Virus record (IMG/VR): IMGVR_UViG_3300014205_000187
Span: 42,381 to 106,380 of that record
Length of the DNA: 64,000 nucleotides
Direction: 5' to 3' (one strand)
From: a virus
Lineage: Duplodnaviria > Caudoviricetes
In this document: piece after piece, positions 5,898 through 19,022 of the stretch
How the letters are laid out: every line of letters starts with the position of its first letter
Position numbering within the stretch: position 1 is the stretch's first letter
The notes under the pieces: model-generated
What the model saw: the letters and a program-made list of their open reading frames with translations, nothing else
What the model was told of the DNA's origin: nothing
Database searches by the model: none
Program-made: the position numbers and the translations under genes

Positions 5898-6711
5898 AAA
5901 AGTTGAGATATTCCATTTAGGGTATTCCAGAGTAGCTCAGTTTGAAGACTGTCCTAGAGCATTCAAGTATACCTATATAGACGGTCTACGTACTCCTGGA
6001 AGTATGGCTATGCGTCGAGGAAATGCTTACCACGCTGCTCTTGAGTTCCTACTTCAATGGAAGATTGACCATAAGGGTCAGTTATTTCCTCTCGAAAGAG
6101 CGGACAAACTAGCCATTCGTTGTGCCAAAAAAGAAAAGCTCACCGACGCCGAAATCTACCGTGTCATAGATGCTGTTCGTTTTTACCACTCTGAGATGTA
6201 TGCTCAACATAATCCGCTTTGTGTAGAAGAGTCTTTCAAGATTGTTCGGGGCGGCATCGAAATCACCGGCAGAATCGACCTTATTCAAGAGATGCATGGT
6301 AAACTGTGGGTTATTGACCACAAGTTCAGCTACGATAAATGGGCCGAACCCAGAGCCAAATACGGCTGTCAGCCTATCATATATCAGTGGGCTGCTCTCG
6401 ATTATTTGTGTGATCGATACGGTATGGAGTTTGGGGGTTTTGCTTACAACATTATTCGATTATTCCCTTCACCACTTATTCAGGTAATCGAGATCGAAAA
6501 AATACCTCAATGGGAATCTGATTGGTGGGAAGAACAAATCGAAGCAACAGCCAAAGTTATTCAGGCAGGCTATCTTCCAGCCAGACCAGGAGACAAACAA
6601 TGTTCCTGGTGCGGTCACAAAGAACTCTGCCAACCGGCTATATATAAAATAAAGCTCTCAGATCAGGGTGTAGTTGAGAGCACAGACATTATGGATTTTG
6701 AGGATTGCTAA
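5830..6711 (+). CDS. PD-(D/E)XK (RecB/Cas4-like) exonuclease
   Basis: YSR..FEDCPR, RGNAYH, GRIDL..IDHK, C-terminal CSWC..C; true start uncertain. Confidence 0.85.
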   Translation: MPKSKKSSPASTKVDRGKTPSTKKVEIFHLGYSRVAQFEDCPRAFKYTYIDGLRTPGSMAMRRGNAYHAALEFLLQWKIDHKGQLFPLERADKLAIRCAKKEKLTDAEIYRVIDAVRFYHSEMYAQHNPLCVEESFKIVRGGIEITGRIDLIQEMHGKLWVIDHKFSYDKWAEPRAKYGCQPIIYQWAALDYLCDRYGMEFGGFAYNIIRLFPSPLIQVIEIEKIPQWESDWWEEQIEATAKVIQAGYLPARPGDKQCSWCGHKELCQPAIYKIKLSDQGVVESTDIMDFEDC

Positions 6712-6712
6712 C

Positions 6713-9133
6713 ATGCCTTATACAAAACAAGAAGCATTAGAAGCCAGCTTGACTTACTTTGAGGGTGATGAGCTGGCAGCAAAAGCATTCGTGGACAAGT
6801 ATGCTCTGCATGAAAATGACATGTATTTTGAGCGTACACCAAACGAAATGCACTGGAGATTGGCTAATGAGTTCGCTCGAATTGAGCGCAACTACCCGAA
6901 TCCTTTAAGCGGTGTGGATATTTTCCAAGCTCTCAAAGGATTCAAAAAAATAGTACCGGGCGGTTCTCCGATGTCGGGCATAGGAAATCGTCACGCAGTT
7001 ATTAGTCTATCTAACTGTGTAGCTGTTGAAAGTCCTAATGACACTCTTTCCTCGATCTACGCTAAAGGTAGAGACCTGGCTAACCTGTTCAAACGACGCT
7101 GTGGAGCAGGCATAGACATCACCACACTGCGTCCAGACGGCTCTCCAGTATCCAACTCGGCTAAGACCTCGACGGGAGCCTGGTCATTTGCTGACCTGTA
7201 TTCATATATAGCAAAACACACGGCTCAACAAGGTCGTCGGGGTGCTTTGATGATAACCCTGGATGTCAGCCATCCTGACATATACAAGTTCGTTACCATG
7301 AAAGCTGATATGAAATGTGTTACCGGAGCCAACATATCGGTTATGATAACTGACGCATTTATGAAAGCGGTCAAGGCCGACGATTGGTGGTTCCTTCAGT
7401 TTAGACCCAGTGCAATAGAAGAAACGATGAGACCTGACGGCACGTTAAAGTTTCCTATCAGCAAGGTCAAAGCGCGAGAGCTGTGGAATCTGATCTGCAA
7501 AACAGCCACCGAAACAGCCGAACCAGGAATCATTTTCATCGATAATTACCGGCGTAATCTTCCTCTTGATTACTATCCAGAGTTCAAATCTGTCTGCGTC
7601 AATCCATGCTCCGAGATACTCTTATCAGCTTACGACTCCTGCCGTCTGCTTTCCCAGAACCTTAGAGGATTTGTCATCAATCCTTTCACTCCCGAAGCCA
7701 ACATAGATATAATAGACTTCAAAAAGCATGTCCATATAGCTATGAGGCTCCTGGATGATCTGGTTGATCTGGAGATAGAGTGTCTTCAAAACATAGTAAA
7801 AAGAGCAGACACCGAAGATGAGCGTATTTTATTCGGTAAAATGGAAAATGCTGCTCAAAGAGGTCGTAGAACTGGTCTTGGAACTCATGGTCTGGCTGAC
7901 ACTCTTGCTGCTTTGAATCTACGATACGATGATTCAGGCACAGCCAGAGATGTCATTCGAGAACTCTACGCTATGTCCAGAAACGAAGCATATAGAGCAA
8001 GTATTCAACTTGCTGTTGAACGTGGAGCTTTCCCTGCTTTTGATTGGGAAGTGGAAAAAGATTGTCCGTTCATCACGCAGTTACCCGAAGATATATACGA
8101 TATGATGAAGCATTGTGGCCGGAGAAATGGCGCACTTCTCACAAATGCTCCGACCGGCACAGTTTCGATAATGAGTCAAACATCATCAGGCATAGAGCCT
8201 GTATTCGATAACTATTATATGCGAAGACGCAAAGTAGCTGAGTCTGATGGCTACGATTTTAGAGGAGAAGATGGAGAATACTACCAGAACTATCAGGTAG
8301 CCAACCATAACCTCCAGCAATACTTCGATATTACGGGCAAGACCGAGATTCCTGATTTATTCGTAACAGCCAACGATATTGACTGGCATGAAAGAGTCAA
8401 GATTCAAGGTATAATACAGGAATACATCGACCACGGTATATCGTCCACTATCAATCTGCCCCGAGGTACGGAAGTAGGGATAGTCCAACAGCTTTATGAA
8501 GAGGCGCATGAGTGCGGTCTCAAAGGACTCACAGTTTACGTGGACGGCTCCAGAGATGGAATCCTGGTTCGTAATCCCGTTAAAGAAGAGGACTGGAGTA
8601 TCAGACCTGAAGTGCTTCCTTGTGAGATATTCCATGCCAATGTTCAACGTGGAGGAGAAACTGAACAGTTTATCATTCTGGTCACTACCAGAGATTCCCT
8701 GCCGTATGAGGTCTTCGGAGGCAAAGCTGAGTTCCTCGATCTGCCAAAATCTTATCAATATGGAAAGATGACTAAGATCGCAAGCAAACCAAAAAATCGA
8801 TATGAACTCGAAGCTATCAATGGCGGGGAACCTGTCATAGTTCGAGATATTGGAATAGCGTTCAGAAACAATGAATACTCAGTTGTAAGTCGTCTCGCTA
8901 CTATGGCTCTACGCAGTCGAACATCTGTGATAAAAGTTGTAGATCAGCTTCTCAAGGAGCCTGATTCCAACCTTTTCACGTATACGAAGGTCATAGCCAG
9001 GGTGCTGAAAAAATATATCACTGAGGGAGAGCGGTCTTCTTTACGCTGCCCTGAGTGTGACTCCAAAGATTCTCTCAGATTTCAGGAGGGTTGTTTCGTG
9101 TGTACAAATTGCGGGTTTACGGGGTGCTCATAA
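6713..9133 (+). CDS. nrdJ: class II (adenosylcobalamin-dependent) ribonucleotide reductase
   Basis: LSNC, RRGALM, GANISV, NPCSE, APTGTVS, ISSTINLP, KGLTVY, C-terminal CxxC..CxxC; no beta-subunit gene nearby. Confidence 0.92.
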   Translation: MPYTKQEALEASLTYFEGDELAAKAFVDKYALHENDMYFERTPNEMHWRLANEFARIERNYPNPLSGVDIFQALKGFKKIVPGGSPMSGIGNRHAVISLSNCVAVESPNDTLSSIYAKGRDLANLFKRRCGAGIDITTLRPDGSPVSNSAKTSTGAWSFADLYSYIAKHTAQQGRRGALMITLDVSHPDIYKFVTMKADMKCVTGANISVMITDAFMKAVKADDWWFLQFRPSAIEETMRPDGTLKFPISKVKARELWNLICKTATETAEPGIIFIDNYRRNLPLDYYPEFKSVCVNPCSEILLSAYDSCRLLSQNLRGFVINPFTPEANIDIIDFKKHVHIAMRLLDDLVDLEIECLQNIVKRADTEDERILFGKMENAAQRGRRTGLGTHGLADTLAALNLRYDDSGTARDVIRELYAMSRNEAYRASIQLAVERGAFPAFDWEVEKDCPFITQLPEDIYDMMKHCGRRNGALLTNAPTGTVSIMSQTSSGIEPVFDNYYMRRRKVAESDGYDFRGEDGEYYQNYQVANHNLQQYFDITGKTEIPDLFVTANDIDWHERVKIQGIIQEYIDHGISSTINLPRGTEVGIVQQLYEEAHECGLKGLTVYVDGSRDGILVRNPVKEEDWSIRPEVLPCEIFHANVQRGGETEQFIILVTTRDSLPYEVFGGKAEFLDLPKSYQYGKMTKIASKPKNRYELEAINGGEPVIVRDIGIAFRNNEYSVVSRLATMALRSRTSVIKVVDQLLKEPDSNLFTYTKVIARVLKKYITEGERSSLRCPECDSKDSLRFQEGCFVCTNCGFTGCS

Positions 9134-9710: not shown

Positions 9711-10133
9711 GTGCGAACAGCTATTCTGCCAGCAAAAGCTATGATACTGGCGCGTGGCAAGTTTCAGGCATTCGAGCTGGAGCCTGGAGACCTCATACAA
9801 GCGTATGACTATAATGCTCGGCGTCCAGTAATGGCAGCAATATCGACAAATACCCCAGTCGAACCCGTCAAAAAGATTCTGGCTCCGGTGCTTCAGTTCA
9901 AAATCATACCATTTTCGCTGGTAACAAAAGCTCTGACTCCACAAGGAGAAAAGAGTCTGGCTGACGGTGCTCGACAGTTCATCGGATACTGCAACAGTAA
10001 TCCTACCAAACTGCTTATACGCACGATAGACGCTCTTATAGAGTATGATGAAATGGTAGATGCTGTACAATTAATGTGGGAATGGCCGCAATATATCTGG
10101 GTCGAAGGAATCTTAGTTGGGATTGACGCATGA
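9711..10133 (+). CDS. stand-alone Hint (intein)-fold-like protein lacking splicing residues
   Basis: ILPAKAMILARGKFQAFELEPGDLIQAYD resembles block A; KALTPQGEKSLAD resembles block B; VDAVQL..YIWVEGILVG resembles blocks F/G. Confidence 0.55.
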   Translation: MRTAILPAKAMILARGKFQAFELEPGDLIQAYDYNARRPVMAAISTNTPVEPVKKILAPVLQFKIIPFSLVTKALTPQGEKSLADGARQFIGYCNSNPTKLLIRTIDALIEYDEMVDAVQLMWEWPQYIWVEGILVGIDA

Positions 10134-11728
10134 CGCACGACATAATAAATCAACTAACTGCCATATATATTCGTGACCCTGACGAAGGCGAAGCCATAGC
10201 CAGAGAGTTCGGACTCTGGGAATCTTTATACGAGAGTGTGTTTAAGCCTCTTCTACGGCAAGTATGTTACGAAGACGTAAATCGCTTCATCGAGTATATT
10301 TTCGTAGACCCTGAAACTCGTGGAGCTGTTGAACAGCAAGACTTTCACGAAGAGTGGCAGCAACTCATTACTGACCACGATAGAGTTTTAATCGCTGCTC
10401 CCAGAGGTCATGGAAAGTCCTATCAAAACATTGGTAGAGCTATATGGGAGCTTGGCCGCAATCATAACCTGAGAATTAAAATCCTTGGTTCAGGTGACGA
10501 TAAAGCCAAAGAAATCCTCGGTCTCATCCGAGAGAACATCGCAAAAAACCCCAAAGTTCAAGAGATATTTCCTACTTTACAAATTGATGTTGCCAGAGGA
10601 GATACTCAGACCAAGTTCTTCGTGGTGCGCGACATCATGCAAAGAGACGCCTCGGTCGAAGCCTCTGGTGTTCTATCGGCTGGTGCTGGTGGTCGTGCAG
10701 ACTTACTTATCTGCGACGACGTTGTAGACCTCAAAAACTCCGTTATCAATCCGGTTCTGCGCGAACAAGTCATCAACGCTGTCAAAGAGACCTGGTTCTC
10801 TCTGGTATCTGCTTCAGGTAAAATTGTCTGGATATGCACACCTTACCACGTTGCCGATGCCAGTCATAATCTCAGAGACACTGGAGTATTCAAAGTTTGG
10901 TGGACTCCAGCTATCACAATCACTCGACATTTTGATGATGACGGCAATGAGATCATCGATGAAGAGACTCAACAGCCAAAAGTCACAAAGACTATCCTGT
11001 GGCCGGACAAATGGAGTGAAGAAAAACTCAAAAAACGTGAACAGGAAGTCGGTTCGAGAGTTTTTGCCCGACAGTATCTTCTCAATGCAATGTCGGACGA
11101 TGAACGCACATTCCCTGAAGTCTCCCTGGAAAAGAGTTTTGATCGAACGAGACGTTACATTGGCGAAGATATTGACCCTGAATGGCCTACTTTTGGTGGC
11201 GTAGATTTGGCTTCAGCTCTGGGTAAAAAGAATGCCTGGACAGTTATCTGGACTCTGGCAAGAAGTCCTCATGACAATCGATTATATCTAAAAAATCTGT
11301 ATCGAAAACGAATGAAGTTCCCGGAAATAATGAGGACTTTGAAAGAACAATATCTGGAACAGCACTGGCAGCTTTGTCTTGTGGAAAACAATCAATTCCA
11401 GCAAGCTGTTATCGACGCCGCCGAAGAAGTCGATAAATCAATACCTATCGAATCGTTCACCACGGGCATCAATAAAGCTAACGAGTTAGTTGGATTACCA
11501 GGTATGGCAGTAGCTTTTGAGAAATCTCAGTTTGCGATACCTGCGGCTTTATTTCCATTGGACCCTGACGATACATCACCTCTTGCTATTTTGATGAATG
11601 AACTTCGGACACATCCAGGAGGAGAGTTCAGTGATACTGTTATGGCTCTTTGGTTTGCTTGGATAGCAGCCCAAAGAAGCAGTGGTGACTTTGAGGACGC
11701 CTATATGGAAGCTGTAAAGTCTATATAG
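10130..11728 (+). CDS. terL: terminase large subunit
   Basis: APRGHGKS Walker A, LLICDD Walker B, RNase H-like GVDLA..VENN..DTVMALW. Confidence 0.93.
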   Translation: MTHDIINQLTAIYIRDPDEGEAIAREFGLWESLYESVFKPLLRQVCYEDVNRFIEYIFVDPETRGAVEQQDFHEEWQQLITDHDRVLIAAPRGHGKSYQNIGRAIWELGRNHNLRIKILGSGDDKAKEILGLIRENIAKNPKVQEIFPTLQIDVARGDTQTKFFVVRDIMQRDASVEASGVLSAGAGGRADLLICDDVVDLKNSVINPVLREQVINAVKETWFSLVSASGKIVWICTPYHVADASHNLRDTGVFKVWWTPAITITRHFDDDGNEIIDEETQQPKVTKTILWPDKWSEEKLKKREQEVGSRVFARQYLLNAMSDDERTFPEVSLEKSFDRTRRYIGEDIDPEWPTFGGVDLASALGKKNAWTVIWTLARSPHDNRLYLKNLYRKRMKFPEIMRTLKEQYLEQHWQLCLVENNQFQQAVIDAAEEVDKSIPIESFTTGINKANELVGLPGMAVAFEKSQFAIPAALFPLDPDDTSPLAILMNELRTHPGGEFSDTVMALWFAWIAAQRSSGDFEDAYMEAVKSI

Positions 11729-11793: not shown

Positions 11794-13563
11794 ATGGCTA
11801 CTCCAATTGGAACATACGCAAGTTCGACAGGCAAAGATGATCTCATAAGTGCGCCTTTCTGGGCTAAAAAGCTCGGTAGAACATTCAAGGCTCTCTTTAA
11901 CCCAGATTCCCCTACAGCTATGCACCCTGCCTCTGAACCTCGTGACTCTCTGGTCATGACAGGTTTGACCAATGCAGATTCTCTAGCTTCTATGGCTAAT
12001 GCCTGGAGAGTCCATCAAACTCGAAAATCTGTCTATCAGGACATCGAACGGATGGATTCTGAAGATGAGATGGTGGCAACAGCTCTCGATATTATAGCCG
12101 ACTGTTCTGTATCTTATACCGATACCAGCGGATTCCACTTCAAGATTCGATCTGATGATGCTGAAACTCAAAAAGTACTCCACGCTCTCGAAAAAAGACT
12201 CGATCTGCACAATGAGATTTGGCAAATATGCAGAGATATGGTGAAGAATGGTAACGATTTCCGAGAAGTGGTCATAGATAGACAGACAATGAAGATCGTT
12301 GCGTTCAAACAGACCATCTCTTATCAGATATACCCTAAAACCAACAAACGTGGAGATAAGCTGCCTGGCTGGGTAGTCAAAGAAGACGGCGACATCTACA
12401 TGTCCAACGGCAAAGAATTGGAGCTTGAGGAGTGGCAGATTTGTCCATTCATCTTCGGTTCCAAAAAAGGTTTCCTGGCATCCCCACCTCTTGCGGCTGC
12501 TCGTAGAAACTGGATTCGTCTGACAAAGATGGAAGATGGTATGGCTGTAGCTCGACTTATCAGAGCTTACGACAAAATGGTTCACAGGATTCCGGTCAAG
12601 CCCGAAATGCCTGTAACCGACATCATGAATCGAATCAGGATGTATAAAGACAGCATCAGCAAGAGGAGAATCCTCGACAGCGATGGTATGATGACGCAGG
12701 TTGACAATAACCTGGACGTTCAAACAGACTTTTATCTGCCGGATGACGGCTCCGGTCGAGGTGGAGTCGATCTACTCTCAGCAAATAACACTCAGCTTGG
12801 AAACTTGAATGACATTATTTATCATCGAGAAAAACTCCTCACCCGTCTTCAGGTTCCTATCGCATATTTGCAGATCACCACGGCTCAGAAAACTCACATA
12901 GCTTCTGGAGCATCGTCTCAGAAAGCCGATGTAGAGATTCAATTTGCTCGTATGCTTCGACGTGTACAGCGTCAACTTCTCAAAGGAATCCATCGACTTT
13001 GTGATCTGGAATTGATGCTCAATGGTATTACTCCTGAGCGTGGTAGCTACAAAATCGAAGTCACTGAGATCAATACTGTAGACCTCAAAAAAGATGCCGA
13101 CATTGAACTCACTTATGCTCAGGCAGCCGTGTTCTTCGTGGAAGCGTTCGGAGCACTACCTCCTGAACTCATCGCTGAAAAGTTCATGCATCTTGATAAC
13201 GATCAGCAAAAACTTCTGGATACATTCCTGAAAACCAGCGGTGCCAGACTCACAGAGGCCAAGATTAAAGGGGCTGAAGCTGCTGGACAGCCTAAACCTG
13301 CTCCTGGGTCTGATGCTCTACCGAAAAAAGGCACTGGAAACTCTACAAAAAATAGAGCAGCCAGGAGTGGAGAACAAAAAGGCACCAAACAAAGTATCCC
13401 TCTGGAAGCCTTTGTTGACGTTATGTATGATCTCGCTGAGGGCATAAATGAAGACTTCAGAAATCAAGGCATAGAAGTCCCTGAGTTGGACGAAAGCCAT
13501 AGGAATGTGATTCGAGCAAACCTGGCCTCCATAATTCAACGCGATAATTTGGTTCTTGAGTAA
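11794..13563 (+). CDS. portal protein, T4 gp20-like
   Basis: ALDIIAD, ARRNWIRLTKMEDGMAVARLIRA, DFYLP, LNDIIYHREKLLTRLQVP; follows terL. Confidence 0.88.
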   Translation: MATPIGTYASSTGKDDLISAPFWAKKLGRTFKALFNPDSPTAMHPASEPRDSLVMTGLTNADSLASMANAWRVHQTRKSVYQDIERMDSEDEMVATALDIIADCSVSYTDTSGFHFKIRSDDAETQKVLHALEKRLDLHNEIWQICRDMVKNGNDFREVVIDRQTMKIVAFKQTISYQIYPKTNKRGDKLPGWVVKEDGDIYMSNGKELELEEWQICPFIFGSKKGFLASPPLAAARRNWIRLTKMEDGMAVARLIRAYDKMVHRIPVKPEMPVTDIMNRIRMYKDSISKRRILDSDGMMTQVDNNLDVQTDFYLPDDGSGRGGVDLLSANNTQLGNLNDIIYHREKLLTRLQVPIAYLQITTAQKTHIASGASSQKADVEIQFARMLRRVQRQLLKGIHRLCDLELMLNGITPERGSYKIEVTEINTVDLKKDADIELTYAQAAVFFVEAFGALPPELIAEKFMHLDNDQQKLLDTFLKTSGARLTEAKIKGAEAAGQPKPAPGSDALPKKGTGNSTKNRAARSGEQKGTKQSIPLEAFVDVMYDLAEGINEDFRNQGIEVPELDESHRNVIRANLASIIQRDNLVLE

Positions 13564-14325
13564 ATGATTGAGATTATCAACGGTGACTGCGTGGCCGAGA
13601 TGGAAAAACTCGGCAAACAATCTGTCAATTGCATAGTCACATCTCCCCCTTACAACTTCGACATCAACTATAATGAATACGATGATGGCATGCCCCGAGA
13701 CAAATACTTAGACTGGCTCGTAGACGTGGCTCATTCGATGCACAAGGTCTTAACCAAGGATGGCAGCATCTTTCTAAACGTAGGATTCAAACCCACAGAC
13801 CCCTGGTTGCCTTATGATGTCTTAAATGTGTTTAGACGCACGTTCTACGCTCAGAACCAGTTCATCTGGGCCAAAAGTGCCTATGTTCCTCAAGCCAAGA
13901 AAACCTATGGACATTTTCGTCCACTCAACTCTCCACGATTCGTTAATCGATGCTGGGAGTTTGTTTTCCATCTCACCAGAACCTCTGATGTCGTTCTTGA
14001 TCGATTGGCTTTAGGAGTTCCTTACGAAGATAAAAGCAACAAGCGTCGTTGGAGTAATCCTGATGATCTTCGATGTCGAGGAGATGTATGGTTCATTCCT
14101 TATGAGACAAAACAGAAAAAGGGTAAACATCCGGCAACATTCCCGCCGAAGTTGGCGATGTATGCTTATGCTCTACATGGTCTTGACCGAATAGAGCTTG
14201 CGATGGACCCGTTTGTTGGAGAAGGAAATAGTGCTGTGGCCGCTAAAAAATTGGACTTGAACTTTGTTGGTATCGACATCGACTCTTTATACTGTGAAAT
14301 AGCGAGAAAAGCTGTAAAAGGCTGA
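13564..14325 (+). CDS. amino-DNA methyltransferase (N4-C/N6-A, beta class)
   Basis: TSPPY catalytic motif precedes HPATFP and DPFVGEG SAM-binding motif. Confidence 0.92.
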   Translation: MIEIINGDCVAEMEKLGKQSVNCIVTSPPYNFDINYNEYDDGMPRDKYLDWLVDVAHSMHKVLTKDGSIFLNVGFKPTDPWLPYDVLNVFRRTFYAQNQFIWAKSAYVPQAKKTYGHFRPLNSPRFVNRCWEFVFHLTRTSDVVLDRLALGVPYEDKSNKRRWSNPDDLRCRGDVWFIPYETKQKKGKHPATFPPKLAMYAYALHGLDRIELAMDPFVGEGNSAVAAKKLDLNFVGIDIDSLYCEIARKAVKG

Positions 14326-14609: not shown

Positions 14610-15641
14610 ATGAAAAGCAGAGTCGAATCACAGTTCGTTCAGCACGGAGATATTGGAGCCGTTTATGGCGGCACCATCGTTGATAACTCTTTGAGCATCG
14701 ATGAAGCTCTCAAAGAATCTGGTCTCGACTGGGAAGTCGGTGTCGATAGAGTCAGAATGGCAAAGAAAACAGGTGGCAAGGTTATTCCTGGATTCTTCGC
14801 CACGTATCGAATGGACACCGGAGACCCGCTCGGAATTGTTAAGACACGATACAATCCGGTGCAGAATCGTGATGCCTTTGCATGGTTGAGATACATTATC
14901 GGTGTAGACGGAGCCTGCGTCACATCTGCCGGTGCGCTGCACAAAGGCCGATACACTTGGGTCTGTATAGACCTTGGTGGATTTGATGTCTTGCCTGAAG
15001 ACGCTGTTCGGAAACGCATGCTGATTCTCAACTCACATGATGGTTCCTCGAATATCCTGGTGCAGCTCCTTCCTCATAGGATAGCTTGCCAGAACATTTT
15101 GAACTTCTCGTATGGAGTCAAAAAAGGTGACGGAGACGAAAACTATGGAGGCGGCAGCGACCCATTCAAGATTCGTCACACTGGCACAGCGATGATTAAG
15201 CTGTCTGAAATCCAGCGAGTCATCGGGGTAGCCAATACAAACTTCGATAGAGTTCAGGCATCTTTCGAGGCATTCAAATCTACTACTGTCACTCCAGAAC
15301 AAAACGATGCTATCATCTATGCCGCTCTGGGAGTGACAGACGAAGATCGAAACCTGTACAATGCCGGGGAGTTTGAGAAGACTCCTCAGTGGGTCAATCA
15401 CTTCGGTCTTATCAACGATGTCATCGAAAAAGGCCCCGGCTCTGACATCAAAGGTGTCCGAGGAACGGTCTGGGGAGCATTCAACGGCATCAACAGCTAC
15501 TTCGATCATATCCGAACTGTCAGAGGTTCTGAGAAGAATCCTGACAACGCCATCGAAAGCAAGTTGATGGGTCACTCGGCGAAAATGAAGGTCAAAGCAT
15601 TCGATGCCTGTCTCAACGCCGTCGAGATTCTCAAAAATTAA
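14610..15641 (+). CDS. DUF932/DUF945-family phage/plasmid protein
   Basis: SGLDWEV, RYNPVQNRDAF, SAGALHKGR, NSHDGS, RIACQN, KIRHT, RGTVWGAFN; own promoter and terminator (moron-like). Confidence 0.85.
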   Translation: MKSRVESQFVQHGDIGAVYGGTIVDNSLSIDEALKESGLDWEVGVDRVRMAKKTGGKVIPGFFATYRMDTGDPLGIVKTRYNPVQNRDAFAWLRYIIGVDGACVTSAGALHKGRYTWVCIDLGGFDVLPEDAVRKRMLILNSHDGSSNILVQLLPHRIACQNILNFSYGVKKGDGDENYGGGSDPFKIRHTGTAMIKLSEIQRVIGVANTNFDRVQASFEAFKSTTVTPEQNDAIIYAALGVTDEDRNLYNAGEFEKTPQWVNHFGLINDVIEKGPGSDIKGVRGTVWGAFNGINSYFDHIRTVRGSEKNPDNAIESKLMGHSAKMKVKAFDACLNAVEILKN

Positions 15642-15696: not shown

Positions 15697-15796
15697 TGCG
15701 TACCCCTCAGAAAATTATTTCATGTGGACAGTCTAACAAGTTGACTATCTGTTAAAGTAGAACCAGCGACTTTACAGAAGCGAGGTCAGACACATC

Positions 15797-18700
15797 ATGG
15801 CGAGACTCCTTGCAAAACCGAAGTCCCGGCTTTTGGTCACTCAAGTGGCTAAGAGAAAGGATGTAAGTCCTGATACGGGAGAAAAGAAATACGGTGATGT
15901 CAAGTTCGCTGACCCGACGAACAGTAAGTATCCGATAGACACTAAAGAACATGCAAAAGCGGCCTGGAGTTACATCAACAAGTCTAAAAACGCTGCTAAA
16001 TACAGCGCGTCAGACTTGAAGGGAATCAAAAGTCGCATTAAGACCGCTTGCAAAAAGTTTGGTGTTGAAATCTCTGCGGACGAACAGGCAGTCTTCGAGC
16101 ATGACCCGATGATGGAAGTGACTCAGAGCCACTACTACATCGATGGAAGCTATGAAGACCACTGCTCCAAAATCTCGGCAGCTTTCAAGCAGTGGCGTAG
16201 GATGGAAGAGTATTGGGATTATAGGTGGGCCAATATCCTTGGTATTACCGATACCTCGATCTACTTCTACACTACCGACTGGGATTCCACAGAGCCGGAA
16301 TACTTCGAGATTGGCTACTCTGTTGAAGGTTCAAAAGTAGTCATAAACGGTGAAGTCCAACGGGTCGATGTAAAACTCATGGTTGACACTCTGGCTGTGC
16401 CTGATGACGATGATGAGTCGAGCATACAAGGGGACGACACACAAACCGGAGAGGAGCAGAAACCGATGGAAACAAAACAGGATACAGTGCCCGATGAGTC
16501 GGCCATCACTGATGCTGCGGTTGCGGCCCCTGCTCAAATTGGCAGTCCTGCGCCGAGTGGAACTGGCAAGAAAACCGATGCTGAGACCAAAGGTTCTTCC
16601 GTGGAAGACCCTGCCGCCGATGCTAACAGCAATAAACCGGCAGATCACAGTGACGGTGAGGGGGCCAGCGAAGAGGCTGCCGATGGCAGCAGCAAAACTG
16701 CCGTGAAAGAAGCACTCGATACAACGGCACCGGGTTACAAGGGTGAACCGGCTGGCACCGATGGAACTCCTGAACCTTACGCTGGTCAGTCTGACAAGCG
16801 AGAAGCTCAACAGGGTGTTCCTTACGATCAGGCCGGACAGTCGATGTGCTACATCCAGAAAGTCGAAAAGACTACTGGAGCTGATGGCAAAACCCTCATG
16901 AAAATGCAGGGTATCGCCACCAGAGGCGACATCGTAAACAAGGTAGGCCAGGTCTACCCGTTGAGCGTTTGGGAGAAGAATCTCCCTGAGATGAACAAGC
17001 AGGCTGCGAACGGCAAGTTCATCGGAAAGCTCGAACACCCAGAAATGGAACAAGGCTTGGTAGATACCGCTATCAAGTTTGACCGATTTTACCTCCAGGG
17101 AAGTGACGTGTGGTTCGAGGCTACCGTCGTTCCCACGGAACCTCACGGTAAAAACCTCCAAGCTCTGCTCGAAGCTGGAGTTCAGGTTGACATGTCCACT
17201 CGTGGATATGGCACGTTCGCAATGCAAGATTGGCGTGGCACCGAGCGGCCCGTCATGCAAGATGACTTCGTTTGCACAGCTATCGACGCTGTGTGGCACG
17301 GAGCATCTTCCGGCTCTGGCGTGAAGTCCACTTCTTACCAGAGCGACCCTAATCTCGAAAAAGGAGAGCAAAAACCAGTGGAAACCAAAGACACCACCAC
17401 TCAATCCGATGTTCAGGTAAAGGCTGCTGCAATCAGAGCCAGTGCCGAACTCAAACAGACTAGGGCCGCTCTTCTGGGCGATGCCGGTCTGAACGAACTG
17501 GGAATGAAGGCTTACCAGACTGCACTTGATAAGTGCGATAGTCTGGAAAACCTCATCGTTACCAGTGAGACGCTGCTTCCGCACCTTCAGGCTACATTCC
17601 CTGCGGCCACAGGTGACGCTCAGGAAGTGACCCAGAGCGCAACTTACAGTCCTACATTCTTCAAAAAGCAGAATCAGGAAGAGGCTGCTCCGCAGAACGT
17701 GGGCGAATTGCTTGACCGTATGGTAGCCGATCTGCCGGACCATTACGAAGGTCAAGCCGTCAATCCCAATTTGCCGAGCCACTTCAGCTCCCCTCGGGCA
17801 GCGTGTAAGAGGCTCATGGTCAATATCGCACGGGAACAGCAAGGTTCATTCTCCGGTCGCAACGCCGCTCTCGGCCTCTTGGCTCTTGAGCAGGGCAAGA
17901 TTGACCGGGCGCAGGATATTCTCTTGCAAAGCCTCGCAACCGGCGCAACCATCGCTGATGGAAACGCTGATGGTGGTGGTGCTCCTTTGAGCAACTACCT
18001 CATCTTCCCGTTGGTCAGACGTGTATTCCCCATGTATATCATGGGTATGATCGCTAGCATCCAGCCGCTCGACAGGCCGGAAGGTAAGATTTTCTTCCTC
18101 GATCAGTACCGTGTAGACGGTTCTGCTAACGAGACAAGAATCGACCTGAACACTTCGAGCAATCCGTTCAATTCTTCGTTTGCTGACAACGCCACTGAAG
18201 GTTCGGCGGCTATGCAGATGAGACTCCGCTTGACGAGTGCCCTGGTTCAGGCGCATACCAAGAAATTGGGCGCGTCCTGGTCACTCGAAGAAATGCAGGA
18301 TTTGAGAGCCTACCACGGTCTCGATGCTGCACAGGAGCTTCTCGGAGGCGTCGCTCGTGAGATGGCTTTGGAGTGGAACAAGGAAGTCCTGGACGACATG
18401 CTGGCTCAGGCTACAGCGTCCGCTTTGACCTTCGGAACTACCATTCCGGCTACTGGGTTTACTCAGCAGAAGGATTGGGACGAGTATCTGTGGGTCTACC
18501 TCAACAAGCTCGATTCGGCCATTTTCTCAAAGAGAAATGGGGCTATGACTCACATCATAGCTGGCGTCGATGCTGCTCTCGCAATGAGCAAGTCCATGCG
18601 CGGCGTCTTTACGTTCAACGCCAACGATGATGGCGTTGATGGAGAGATTTATCCGGGAACCACGTTCTACGGAACAGTCTCTATCCCTGGTGCTGGTAAG

Positions 18701-18961
18701 TATAAAGTTCTGAGAACGAACTTCTGGTCTACCGGCACGACAAACGGCTCGAAGATTCTTGGTCTCCGCAAGGGTGCCGAGTGGTCTGATACGCCGTACA
18801 TCTGGGCACCATACACCGACTATGTGACTCCGATGCTTACTGACCCGGCTGACTTCAGCCAGAAGCAGGGCATCATCAGCAGAGCCGCAAAGAAGGTCGT
18901 GGTCGCAGACGCGATGGGGACCATCACCGTCAACAGCGGCGTGGGCGAGCTTGTCAGCTAA
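15797..18961 (+). CDS. capsid polyprotein: DUF6582-like N-terminus + T4 gp21-like prohead protease + scaffold + T4 gp23-like major capsid protein
   Basis: KYPIDTKEHAKAAWSYI; protease NKVGQVYP/GKLEHP/MSTRGYG/IDAV; capsid PLVRRVFP, IQPLDRPEG, WSLEEMQDLRAYHGLDAAQEL, WAPY. Confidence 0.9.
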   Translation: MARLLAKPKSRLLVTQVAKRKDVSPDTGEKKYGDVKFADPTNSKYPIDTKEHAKAAWSYINKSKNAAKYSASDLKGIKSRIKTACKKFGVEISADEQAVFEHDPMMEVTQSHYYIDGSYEDHCSKISAAFKQWRRMEEYWDYRWANILGITDTSIYFYTTDWDSTEPEYFEIGYSVEGSKVVINGEVQRVDVKLMVDTLAVPDDDDESSIQGDDTQTGEEQKPMETKQDTVPDESAITDAAVAAPAQIGSPAPSGTGKKTDAETKGSSVEDPAADANSNKPADHSDGEGASEEAADGSSKTAVKEALDTTAPGYKGEPAGTDGTPEPYAGQSDKREAQQGVPYDQAGQSMCYIQKVEKTTGADGKTLMKMQGIATRGDIVNKVGQVYPLSVWEKNLPEMNKQAANGKFIGKLEHPEMEQGLVDTAIKFDRFYLQGSDVWFEATVVPTEPHGKNLQALLEAGVQVDMSTRGYGTFAMQDWRGTERPVMQDDFVCTAIDAVWHGASSGSGVKSTSYQSDPNLEKGEQKPVETKDTTTQSDVQVKAAAIRASAELKQTRAALLGDAGLNELGMKAYQTALDKCDSLENLIVTSETLLPHLQATFPAATGDAQEVTQSATYSPTFFKKQNQEEAAPQNVGELLDRMVADLPDHYEGQAVNPNLPSHFSSPRAACKRLMVNIAREQQGSFSGRNAALGLLALEQGKIDRAQDILLQSLATGATIADGNADGGGAPLSNYLIFPLVRRVFPMYIMGMIASIQPLDRPEGKIFFLDQYRVDGSANETRIDLNTSSNPFNSSFADNATEGSAAMQMRLRLTSALVQAHTKKLGASWSLEEMQDLRAYHGLDAAQELLGGVAREMALEWNKEVLDDMLAQATASALTFGTTIPATGFTQQKDWDEYLWVYLNKLDSAIFSKRNGAMTHIIAGVDAALAMSKSMRGVFTFNANDDGVDGEIYPGTTFYGTVSIPGAGKYKVLRTNFWSTGTTNGSKILGLRKGAEWSDTPYIWAPYTDYVTPMLTDPADFSQKQGIISRAAKKVVVADAMGTITVNSGVGELVS

Positions 18962-18981: not shown

Positions 18982-19022
18982 AAAGAAAAAGGCTCCCTGG
19001 AAACAGGGGGTCTTTTCTTTTT
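18982..19022 (+). terminator. intrinsic terminator after capsid gene
   Basis: GGCTCCCTG-GAAA-CAGGGGGTC followed by a T tract. Confidence 0.8.

Follow-up and report, generated by a model that had tools for sequence, protein, structure and literature searches.

Among the 64,000 nucleotides (nt) analysed here, called the window below and corresponding to positions 42,381-106,380 of the virus record IMGVR_UViG_3300014205_000187 (Caudoviricetes), a single open reading frame (ORF) of 1054 codons on the + strand (15797-18961) joins a T4 gp21-type prohead protease and a T4 gp23-type major capsid domain in one head gene, with a full-length product of 114.5 kDa. Two further in-frame start codons, ATG 16466 and GTG 17378, each behind a Shine-Dalgarno (SD) sequence, divide this frame near the boundaries of its domains. 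Because the SD/start pairs are conserved in relatives, with constraint at synonymous positions, nested products of 114.5, 89.1 and 56.9 kDa are likely, and we think it probable that the gene is read from all three starts into chains with a common C-terminus, the long ones being minority carriers of the protease.

The virus record, which has direct terminal repeats, is complete at 106,380 bp, and a scan of the whole genome found the head gene to be its sole match to Gp23 and its sole match to Peptidase_S77, with no other capsid or protease gene and no second gp23-like gene. The ORF also follows the large terminase (10130-11728) and the portal (11794-13563). Since nothing else in the complete genome matches Gp23, and since the gene lies after these packaging genes, it encodes the capsid protein of this phage.

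Domain architecture of the head gene

Pfam and PHROGs agree with the earlier reading of the gene, in which a DUF6582-like region, a gp21-like protease and a gp23-like capsid region share one frame of 1054 amino acids (aa); the PHROGs calls are head maturation protease and major head protein. The order of the domains was followed along an AlphaFold2 model built from 63 homologues, with a mean predicted local distance difference test score (pLDDT) of 69. All parts of the gene lie on the + strand. Translation of the full-length product would start at ATG 15797, 10 nt behind the SD sequence GAGGT (15782-15786; duplex −9.1 kcal/mol, local fold −12.6). The first domain, DUF6582 (aa 16-94, 15842-16078; Pfam 113.5 bits), is ordered in the model at about aa 40-100 and is missing from many homologues. 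It is followed by a conserved alpha/beta domain (aa 112-190, 16130-16366), recognised by its pLDDT of about 82-92 and its conserved residues, to which neither Pfam nor a Protein Atlas search with aa 100-200 (best scores of at most 0.88) assigned a family. Both domains belong to the full-length product only, and they are separated from the protease by an acidic linker (aa 195-326, 16379-16774; pLDDT below 50) that is predicted to be disordered and holds the first internal start.

For the protease, Peptidase_S77 matches aa 355-505 (16859-17311) and reaches 47 bits, where the cut-off is 27 (the two other Pfam matches of the gene likewise exceed their curated thresholds). The folded core extends over aa 335-500, and the domain is modelled with a pLDDT of 84-95. 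A profile of the 63 homologues matches PDB 5JBL at an E-value of 1.3e-12, and a Foldseek comparison with the same structure gives a target-normalised template modelling score of 0.75-0.76 and a root-mean-square deviation of 3.6-3.8 Å over 175 columns. Ser467, which is invariant, and His414, kept in at least 90% of the 63 homologues, are candidate catalytic residues. A second linker (aa 502-540, 17300-17416), again with pLDDT below 50, holds the second internal start, so that in the model both internal starts appear to fall in disordered segments.

Downstream of this linker, a region resembling a scaffold or propeptide (aa 538-711, 17408-17929) is predicted to form long helices (538-562, 567-578, 583-600 and others up to residue 711). 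It is fused to the capsid domain and sits upstream of the position that aligns with the maturation site of T4 gp23. The capsid domain itself occupies approximately aa 712-1054 (17930-18958), a range whose N-terminal boundary is approximate; the modelled capsid fold covers about aa 740-1054. Its assignment comes from Pfam (Gp23, 106 bits, aa 796-1036) and from matches to T4 gp23 chains by profile (E about 1e-17) and by Foldseek (E about 1e-11).

The N-terminal module has a distribution of its own. DUF6582 also occurs on polyproteins with a Peptidase_S78 protease and an HK97-type capsid domain (P0078 and P0081), that is, on non-homologous protease-capsid fusions. In other homologues (P0031 and P0049-P0055) an insert of about 60-70 residues that resembles DUF6582 is placed immediately before the first internal start, either replacing the N-terminal copy or adding to it. 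The module is thus mobile among homologues, yet it always stays upstream of that start.

Two candidate internal start sites and their conservation

The first internal cassette (16448-16468) reads GGAGAGGAG followed by a 9-nt spacer and ATG 16466 (M224); its SD sequence is AGGAG (16452-16456), 9 nt upstream of the ATG, and its predicted product has 831 aa and 89.1 kDa. The second (17361-17380) consists of AAGGAG (17361-17366), an A-rich spacer of 11 nt and GTG 17378 (V528), from which a scaffold-capsid product of 527 aa and 56.9 kDa is predicted. The positions, the motifs and the three lengths (1054, 831 and 527 aa) are those that the earlier note had given. That note had also described the surroundings of the two starts as similar, duplicated segments, a description that holds at the peptide level: aa 208-248 and 512-552 align without gaps with a BLOSUM62 score of 68, where 60 shuffles gave a best off-diagonal score of 38.4 ± 4.1 and a maximum of 49. 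It does not extend to the DNA, where a repeat of the cassettes was not reported by the repeat search and scored no better than 11 other chance pairs in the ORF, nor to relatives, since the likeness fades already in the closest homologue (80% identity). The word 'duplicated' therefore fits two linker peptides of this phage only, with no conserved duplication behind it; in the sequences compared, the conserved feature is the combination of SD sequence, spacing and start codon.

Conservation could be followed in a large group of relatives. Fused homologues recovered by a word-based search fall into about 67 clusters, of which many are on contigs of 100-115 kb, and an exhaustive search that used the 527-aa product as query gave several dozen clusters at 50% identity, with fused proteins of 800-1225 aa. 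DNA was compared for 26 non-redundant fused ORFs, of which 15 non-redundant sequences form the close clade. When every alignment column of these 15 was scanned for an SD sequence followed by ATG, GTG or TTG, only three places carried the combination in at least 40% of the sequences: the start of the ORF (8/15), the first internal site (11/15) and the second (15/15). The low count at the ORF start reflects the many homologues without DUF6582, which start elsewhere. Synonymous sites in this comparison have almost reached saturation: at conserved residues encoded by four-fold degenerate codons, codon identity has a median of 0.36.

At the second site, the signal reaches into the choice of synonymous codons. 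The valine is encoded by GTG in 13 of 13 cases, with ATG in one further sequence; at 21 other conserved valine columns GTG accounts for 66 of 295 codons (22%). The glycine encoded within the SD sequence uses GGA in all 16 close-clade sequences recorded with GTG as the start, although GGA makes up only 13-33% of the glycine codons of those genes. Synonymous resampling of the 14 non-redundant close-clade sequences with a GTG start recreated the SD sequence and start with a chance of 0.02-0.17 per sequence. The pattern also extends beyond the close clade: the relatives at 35-45% identity whose DNA was examined carry, at this same boundary between protease and scaffold, GGAGG or AGGAGG followed by ATG or GTG, and among 45 distant fused representatives with a clear protease domain, compared as proteins only, 36 carry a methionine behind residues that could encode an SD sequence within 40 aa after the protease, as against 14% of other 40-residue windows taken as background.

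The first site shows a similar but narrower pattern. Among the 63 homologues its residue is methionine in 44 and valine in 11, in a neighbourhood of variable residues, and the residue that follows the start varies widely (Ala, Glu, Lys or Asp). Where valine occurs it is encoded by GTG, though this codon represents only 7-9% of valine codons in those genes. A conserved Gln-Asp pair (228-229) lies four residues downstream. On these comparisons the second site is strongly and the first moderately supported, the second being universal down to about 30% identity and the first distinct only among sequences of the clade with at least 50% identity.

At both sites the predicted SD duplex is also stronger than at the median gene start of this phage. 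The SD duplexes have −9.2 kcal/mol at the first site and −8.7 kcal/mol at the second, as compared with −9.1 for the start of the ORF and a median of −6.5 for 35 gene starts of the phage. Local folding is weaker at the first (−5.5, 2nd percentile) and second (−7.6) sites than at the start of the ORF, and in each gene the 60-nt segments that surround the two sites rank among the least folded, for the most part in the 1st-7th percentile. The earlier note had let its proposal stand or fall with the conservation of the SD/start pairs in homologues; the column scan, the GTG bias and the synonymous resampling all favour conservation.

Several observations weigh against internal initiation. Low RNA structure would be expected anyway for the A/G-rich DNA of these linkers, and the SD sequences are partly forced by an acidic, glycine-rich linker peptide. 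At the first site, the resampling test is weak (the SD sequence and start arise by chance at 0.09-0.55 per sequence) because Glu-Glu codons largely fix the SD sequence there, and in distant clades this site is unclear or absent. The homologues are related, so that the counts are not fully independent, and the anti-SD sequence of the host may differ from the one assumed. GTG is a weaker start than ATG, an odd choice for the product that would be expected to be the most abundant. Finally, among the RNA runs looked up for this sequence, none was listed as containing it; its DNA has been recorded in landfill and groundwater metagenomes.

The two cassettes might also be explained in other ways. The gene could produce the full-length polyprotein only, each capsid subunit carrying its protease, with the linker motifs being features of the peptide, for example flexible acidic linkers or sites recognised by the protease. 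That the two linker peptides resemble each other beyond chance would fit this explanation, as would the probable cleavage sites in the linkers (Tyr-Gln-Ser upstream of the second start and Gln-Asp downstream of the first) and the annotation of published fusion genes as single proteins. A constraint on the peptide leaves unexplained, however, why the valine is always GTG and the SD glycine always GGA, why methionine and valine alternate at both sites with few other residues, and why the residue after the first start is so varied, and we consider it improbable. The same motifs could also be read as ribosome pause sites that assist the stepwise folding of the domains, for which their position at domain boundaries would be suitable; a pause would work without a start codon, but ATG or GTG is retained 5-12 nt downstream, and this explanation seems very hard to sustain.

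Two other explanations keep the cassettes as translation signals, present or past. Internal promoters could give rise to nested products by way of shorter mRNAs, in the manner of UL26.5 of herpes simplex virus 1 (HSV-1), with the cassettes serving those transcripts. Apart from this herpesvirus precedent, a consensus scan may miss late phage promoters; the scan, which is weak evidence since phage promoters may deviate from the consensus, found no sigma-70-like promoter on the + strand inside the ORF (five sites in the region against 4.2 expected, all of them upstream of 15800 or on the opposite strand), and the conserved elements are translational. We give internal promoters little credence; they would alter only the route, with the same products as a result. 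It is also conceivable that the cassettes are non-functional relics of separate genes similar to genes 21, 22 and 23, fused after the loss of stop codons, as T4-type relatives do keep separate genes in this order. Relics would decay, though, and the cassettes persist across lineages that range from 80% to about 30% identity, where synonymous sites are saturated, and in linkers that are otherwise highly variable, which makes such an origin as remote a prospect as ribosome pausing.

Two stand-alone matches (P0089 and P0092), of 499 aa and 519 aa, were also obtained. One relative at 43% identity (L057) has a TAG where a near-identical fused sequence (L056) has CAG, four codons before a methionine preceded by GGCGGAG. 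This TAG lies about 70 residues downstream of the second site, where the contig extends for no more than 47 nt upstream; a real split gene and an error are both possible.

Predicted products, maturation and genome setting

If initiation occurs at the three starts, ATG 15797 would yield the 114.5-kDa chain with DUF6582, the alpha/beta domain, the linker, the gp21-type protease, the scaffold-like region and the gp23-type capsid domain; ATG 16466 would yield the 89.1-kDa chain, which lacks the N-terminal module; and GTG 17378 would yield the 56.9-kDa scaffold-capsid chain, similar in build to HK97 gp5, as the bulk subunit. Because all of them end with the same capsid domain, the three chains should be able to enter the lattice of the shell. 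As the minority among the subunits, the two long chains would use their N-terminal extensions to bring the protease into the interior of the prohead, together with the DUF6582 module in the case of the longest chain. As judged from sequence conservation, three nested products are the best-supported reading of the gene, and this part of the earlier proposal stands; its further suggestion, that the products set a protease:scaffold:capsid ratio, needs to be narrowed. The 527-aa and 831-aa products both keep the scaffold joined to the capsid, so that no scaffold:capsid ratio can be set and the two would remain at 1:1. What nested starts could dose is only the N-terminal module and the protease, against the scaffold-capsid chain.

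Once inside, the protease would cut the linkers and remove the scaffold-like region, so that a capsid protein of about 37-39 kDa remains. The position of this cut can be approached through T4 gp23, whose residues 80-138 stand opposite residues of about 720-780 of the head protein in the profile alignment. The maturation cut of T4 gp23 lies after Glu65, which would correspond to about residue 706 here. The T4 protease cleaves after glutamate in a Leu/Ile-x-Glu motif. Two candidate sites flank residue 706: Glu698-Gln699 (aa 698-700, 17888-17896), where the invariant Glu698 is surrounded by Leu-Leu-Ala-Leu-Glu-Gln-Gly, and Gln711-Ser712 (17927-17932), with Gln711 invariant and Ser712 present in 53 of the 63 homologues. 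The predicted mass of the capsid protein after the cut is 38.6 or 37.1 kDa. A further conserved motif, Tyr-Gln-Ser, closes the protease (aa 514-516, 17336-17344; glutamine invariant, serine in 62/63), 12 residues upstream of the second start, and its Gln515-Ser516 is a third candidate site. A protease specific for either glutamate or glutamine would fit the candidate sites, and the linkers with the internal starts probably harbour cleavage sites as well. The anatomy of the gene, the folds of its domains and the conservation of both SD/start cassettes, including their synonymous positions, are features of the sequences themselves; that ribosomes initiate at the internal sites, in which relative amounts the chains are made, that they co-assemble and where they are cut is what we infer from these features.

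A more speculative extension is that the gene uses a three-tier dosing system, in which all contents that the prohead requires are delivered as N-terminal extensions of capsid subunits, in copy numbers set solely by the relative strengths of the three starts. DUF6582 and the alpha/beta domain would then be portable, capsid-targeted cargo, released by the protease in the head and perhaps ejected with the DNA. The idea that DUF6582 is portable cargo comes from its presence on unrelated HK97-type polyproteins and from its shift, in some homologues, to just upstream of the first internal start. We regard the scheme as a whole as rather unlikely.

Taken literally, a fused protease-capsid gene would supply one protease per capsid subunit, and conserved internal starts are a simple and testable answer to this difficulty. 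In genome annotation, dozens of clusters at 50% identity, with proteins of 800-1225 aa, are listed with one protein where three are probably made, and capsid predictions or expression constructs based on the full ORF probably represent the wrong product.

Other features of the locus can be described briefly. Directly 3' of the head gene, a hairpin with a T tract (18987-19016, + strand) resembles an intrinsic terminator. Upstream, the head module has an unusual interruption, with a DNA methyltransferase (13564-14325) and a DUF932 protein (14610-15641) between portal and head gene, and the large subunit of a ribonucleotide reductase (6674-9133) precedes the packaging genes. Within the head gene, an antisense ORF of 503 codons (16331-17842, − strand) matched nothing in Pfam and probably represents a shadow frame.

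Relation to nested and fused head genes

Near counterparts of the head gene are genes 21 (protease), 22 (scaffold core) and 23 (capsid) of T4, where the protease and capsid folds are homologous (PDB 5JBL and 6UZC) and the genome order is the same. T4 and T4-like cyanophages nevertheless have three separate genes, together with a vertex paralogue, gp24, whereas here there is one ORF and no second gp23-like gene. A tblastn search of the GenBank phage collection agrees with this separation, which the earlier note had stated for T4: the best matches are T4-like cyanophages with g21, g22 and g23 apart, at about 25% identity, and none of the 40 best records covers 80% or more of the head protein.

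Fusion of the three functions has parallels outside the T4-type lineage. Effantin et al. reportedly described a tripartite protease-scaffold-capsid gene in the Salmonella phage Gifsy-2. The protease of this phage is ClpP-like. The gene analysed here resembles Gifsy-2 and the actinobacteriophage fusions in having protease, a scaffold-like middle part and capsid in one ORF and in the same order. The actinobacteriophage fusions combine an S78 protease with an HK97-type capsid protein, in contrast to the S77 and gp23-type pair of the head gene, and neither Pfam nor the 40 best records of the tblastn search of the phage collection showed any likeness in sequence to the Gifsy-2 and actinobacteriophage fusions (S78/ClpP-type protease, HK97-type capsid PF05065). 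Tripartite fusions are also found mostly in small or lambdoid genomes, unlike the 106-kb genome with its extra N-terminal module. The published accounts of actinobacteriophage-type fusions that were consulted describe them as single proteins, with internal starts unmentioned. In the annotated protease-capsid fusion genes of two cultured phages, Rhodococcus phage REQ1 (L064, aa 295) and phage Madraxi (L062, aa 300), an in-frame ATG stands 7-8 nt after AAGGAG or AAGGA near the protease/capsid junction; phage Shagrat (L063) is ambiguous, and when the capsid gene of Gordonia phage Eudoria, which is a separate gene, was aligned with the fusions of the Rhodococcus phages, the starts did not match cleanly.

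The 527-aa product has its own precedent in HK97 gp5 and T5 pb8, in which a scaffolding delta domain is fused to the capsid protein (PMC10275583). In the same way, the predicted product would carry a helical, scaffold-like N-terminal region fused 1:1 to its capsid domain. The protease of HK97 is encoded by a separate gene, whereas here the same frame extends upstream into the protease.

The precedents for nesting come from genes for proteases and scaffolds: C/Nu3 of lambda, UL26/UL26.5 of HSV-1 and gp17/gp17.5 of the Haloferax virus HFTV1, the last demonstrated by ribosome profiling and mass spectrometry (bioRxiv 10.64898/2026.09.13.751334). In these systems an in-frame internal start leads to an abundant, protease-free assembly protein that is 3'-coterminal with the protease gene, and the common C-terminus targets the rarer protease chain to the procapsid (bioRxiv 10.64898/2026.09.13.751334). 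The head gene is similar to the lambda C/Nu3 type, as read from its sequence, in that a conserved in-frame SD sequence and start lie downstream of the protease and define a 3'-coterminal frame. The three known systems make a free scaffold and have a separate capsid gene, and here, instead, the frame continues without a stop into the capsid domain; the two internal starts and the T4 gp21 (S77) type of protease also set it apart. Nested protease/scaffold genes and protease-scaffold-capsid fusions are thus both known. The head gene unites nested starts with fusion, in a T4-type protease and capsid, and adds two internal starts and an N-terminal module, and it would extend the nested-gene logic of lambda, herpesviruses and an archaeal virus to the T4-type head lineage, up to the capsid protein itself.

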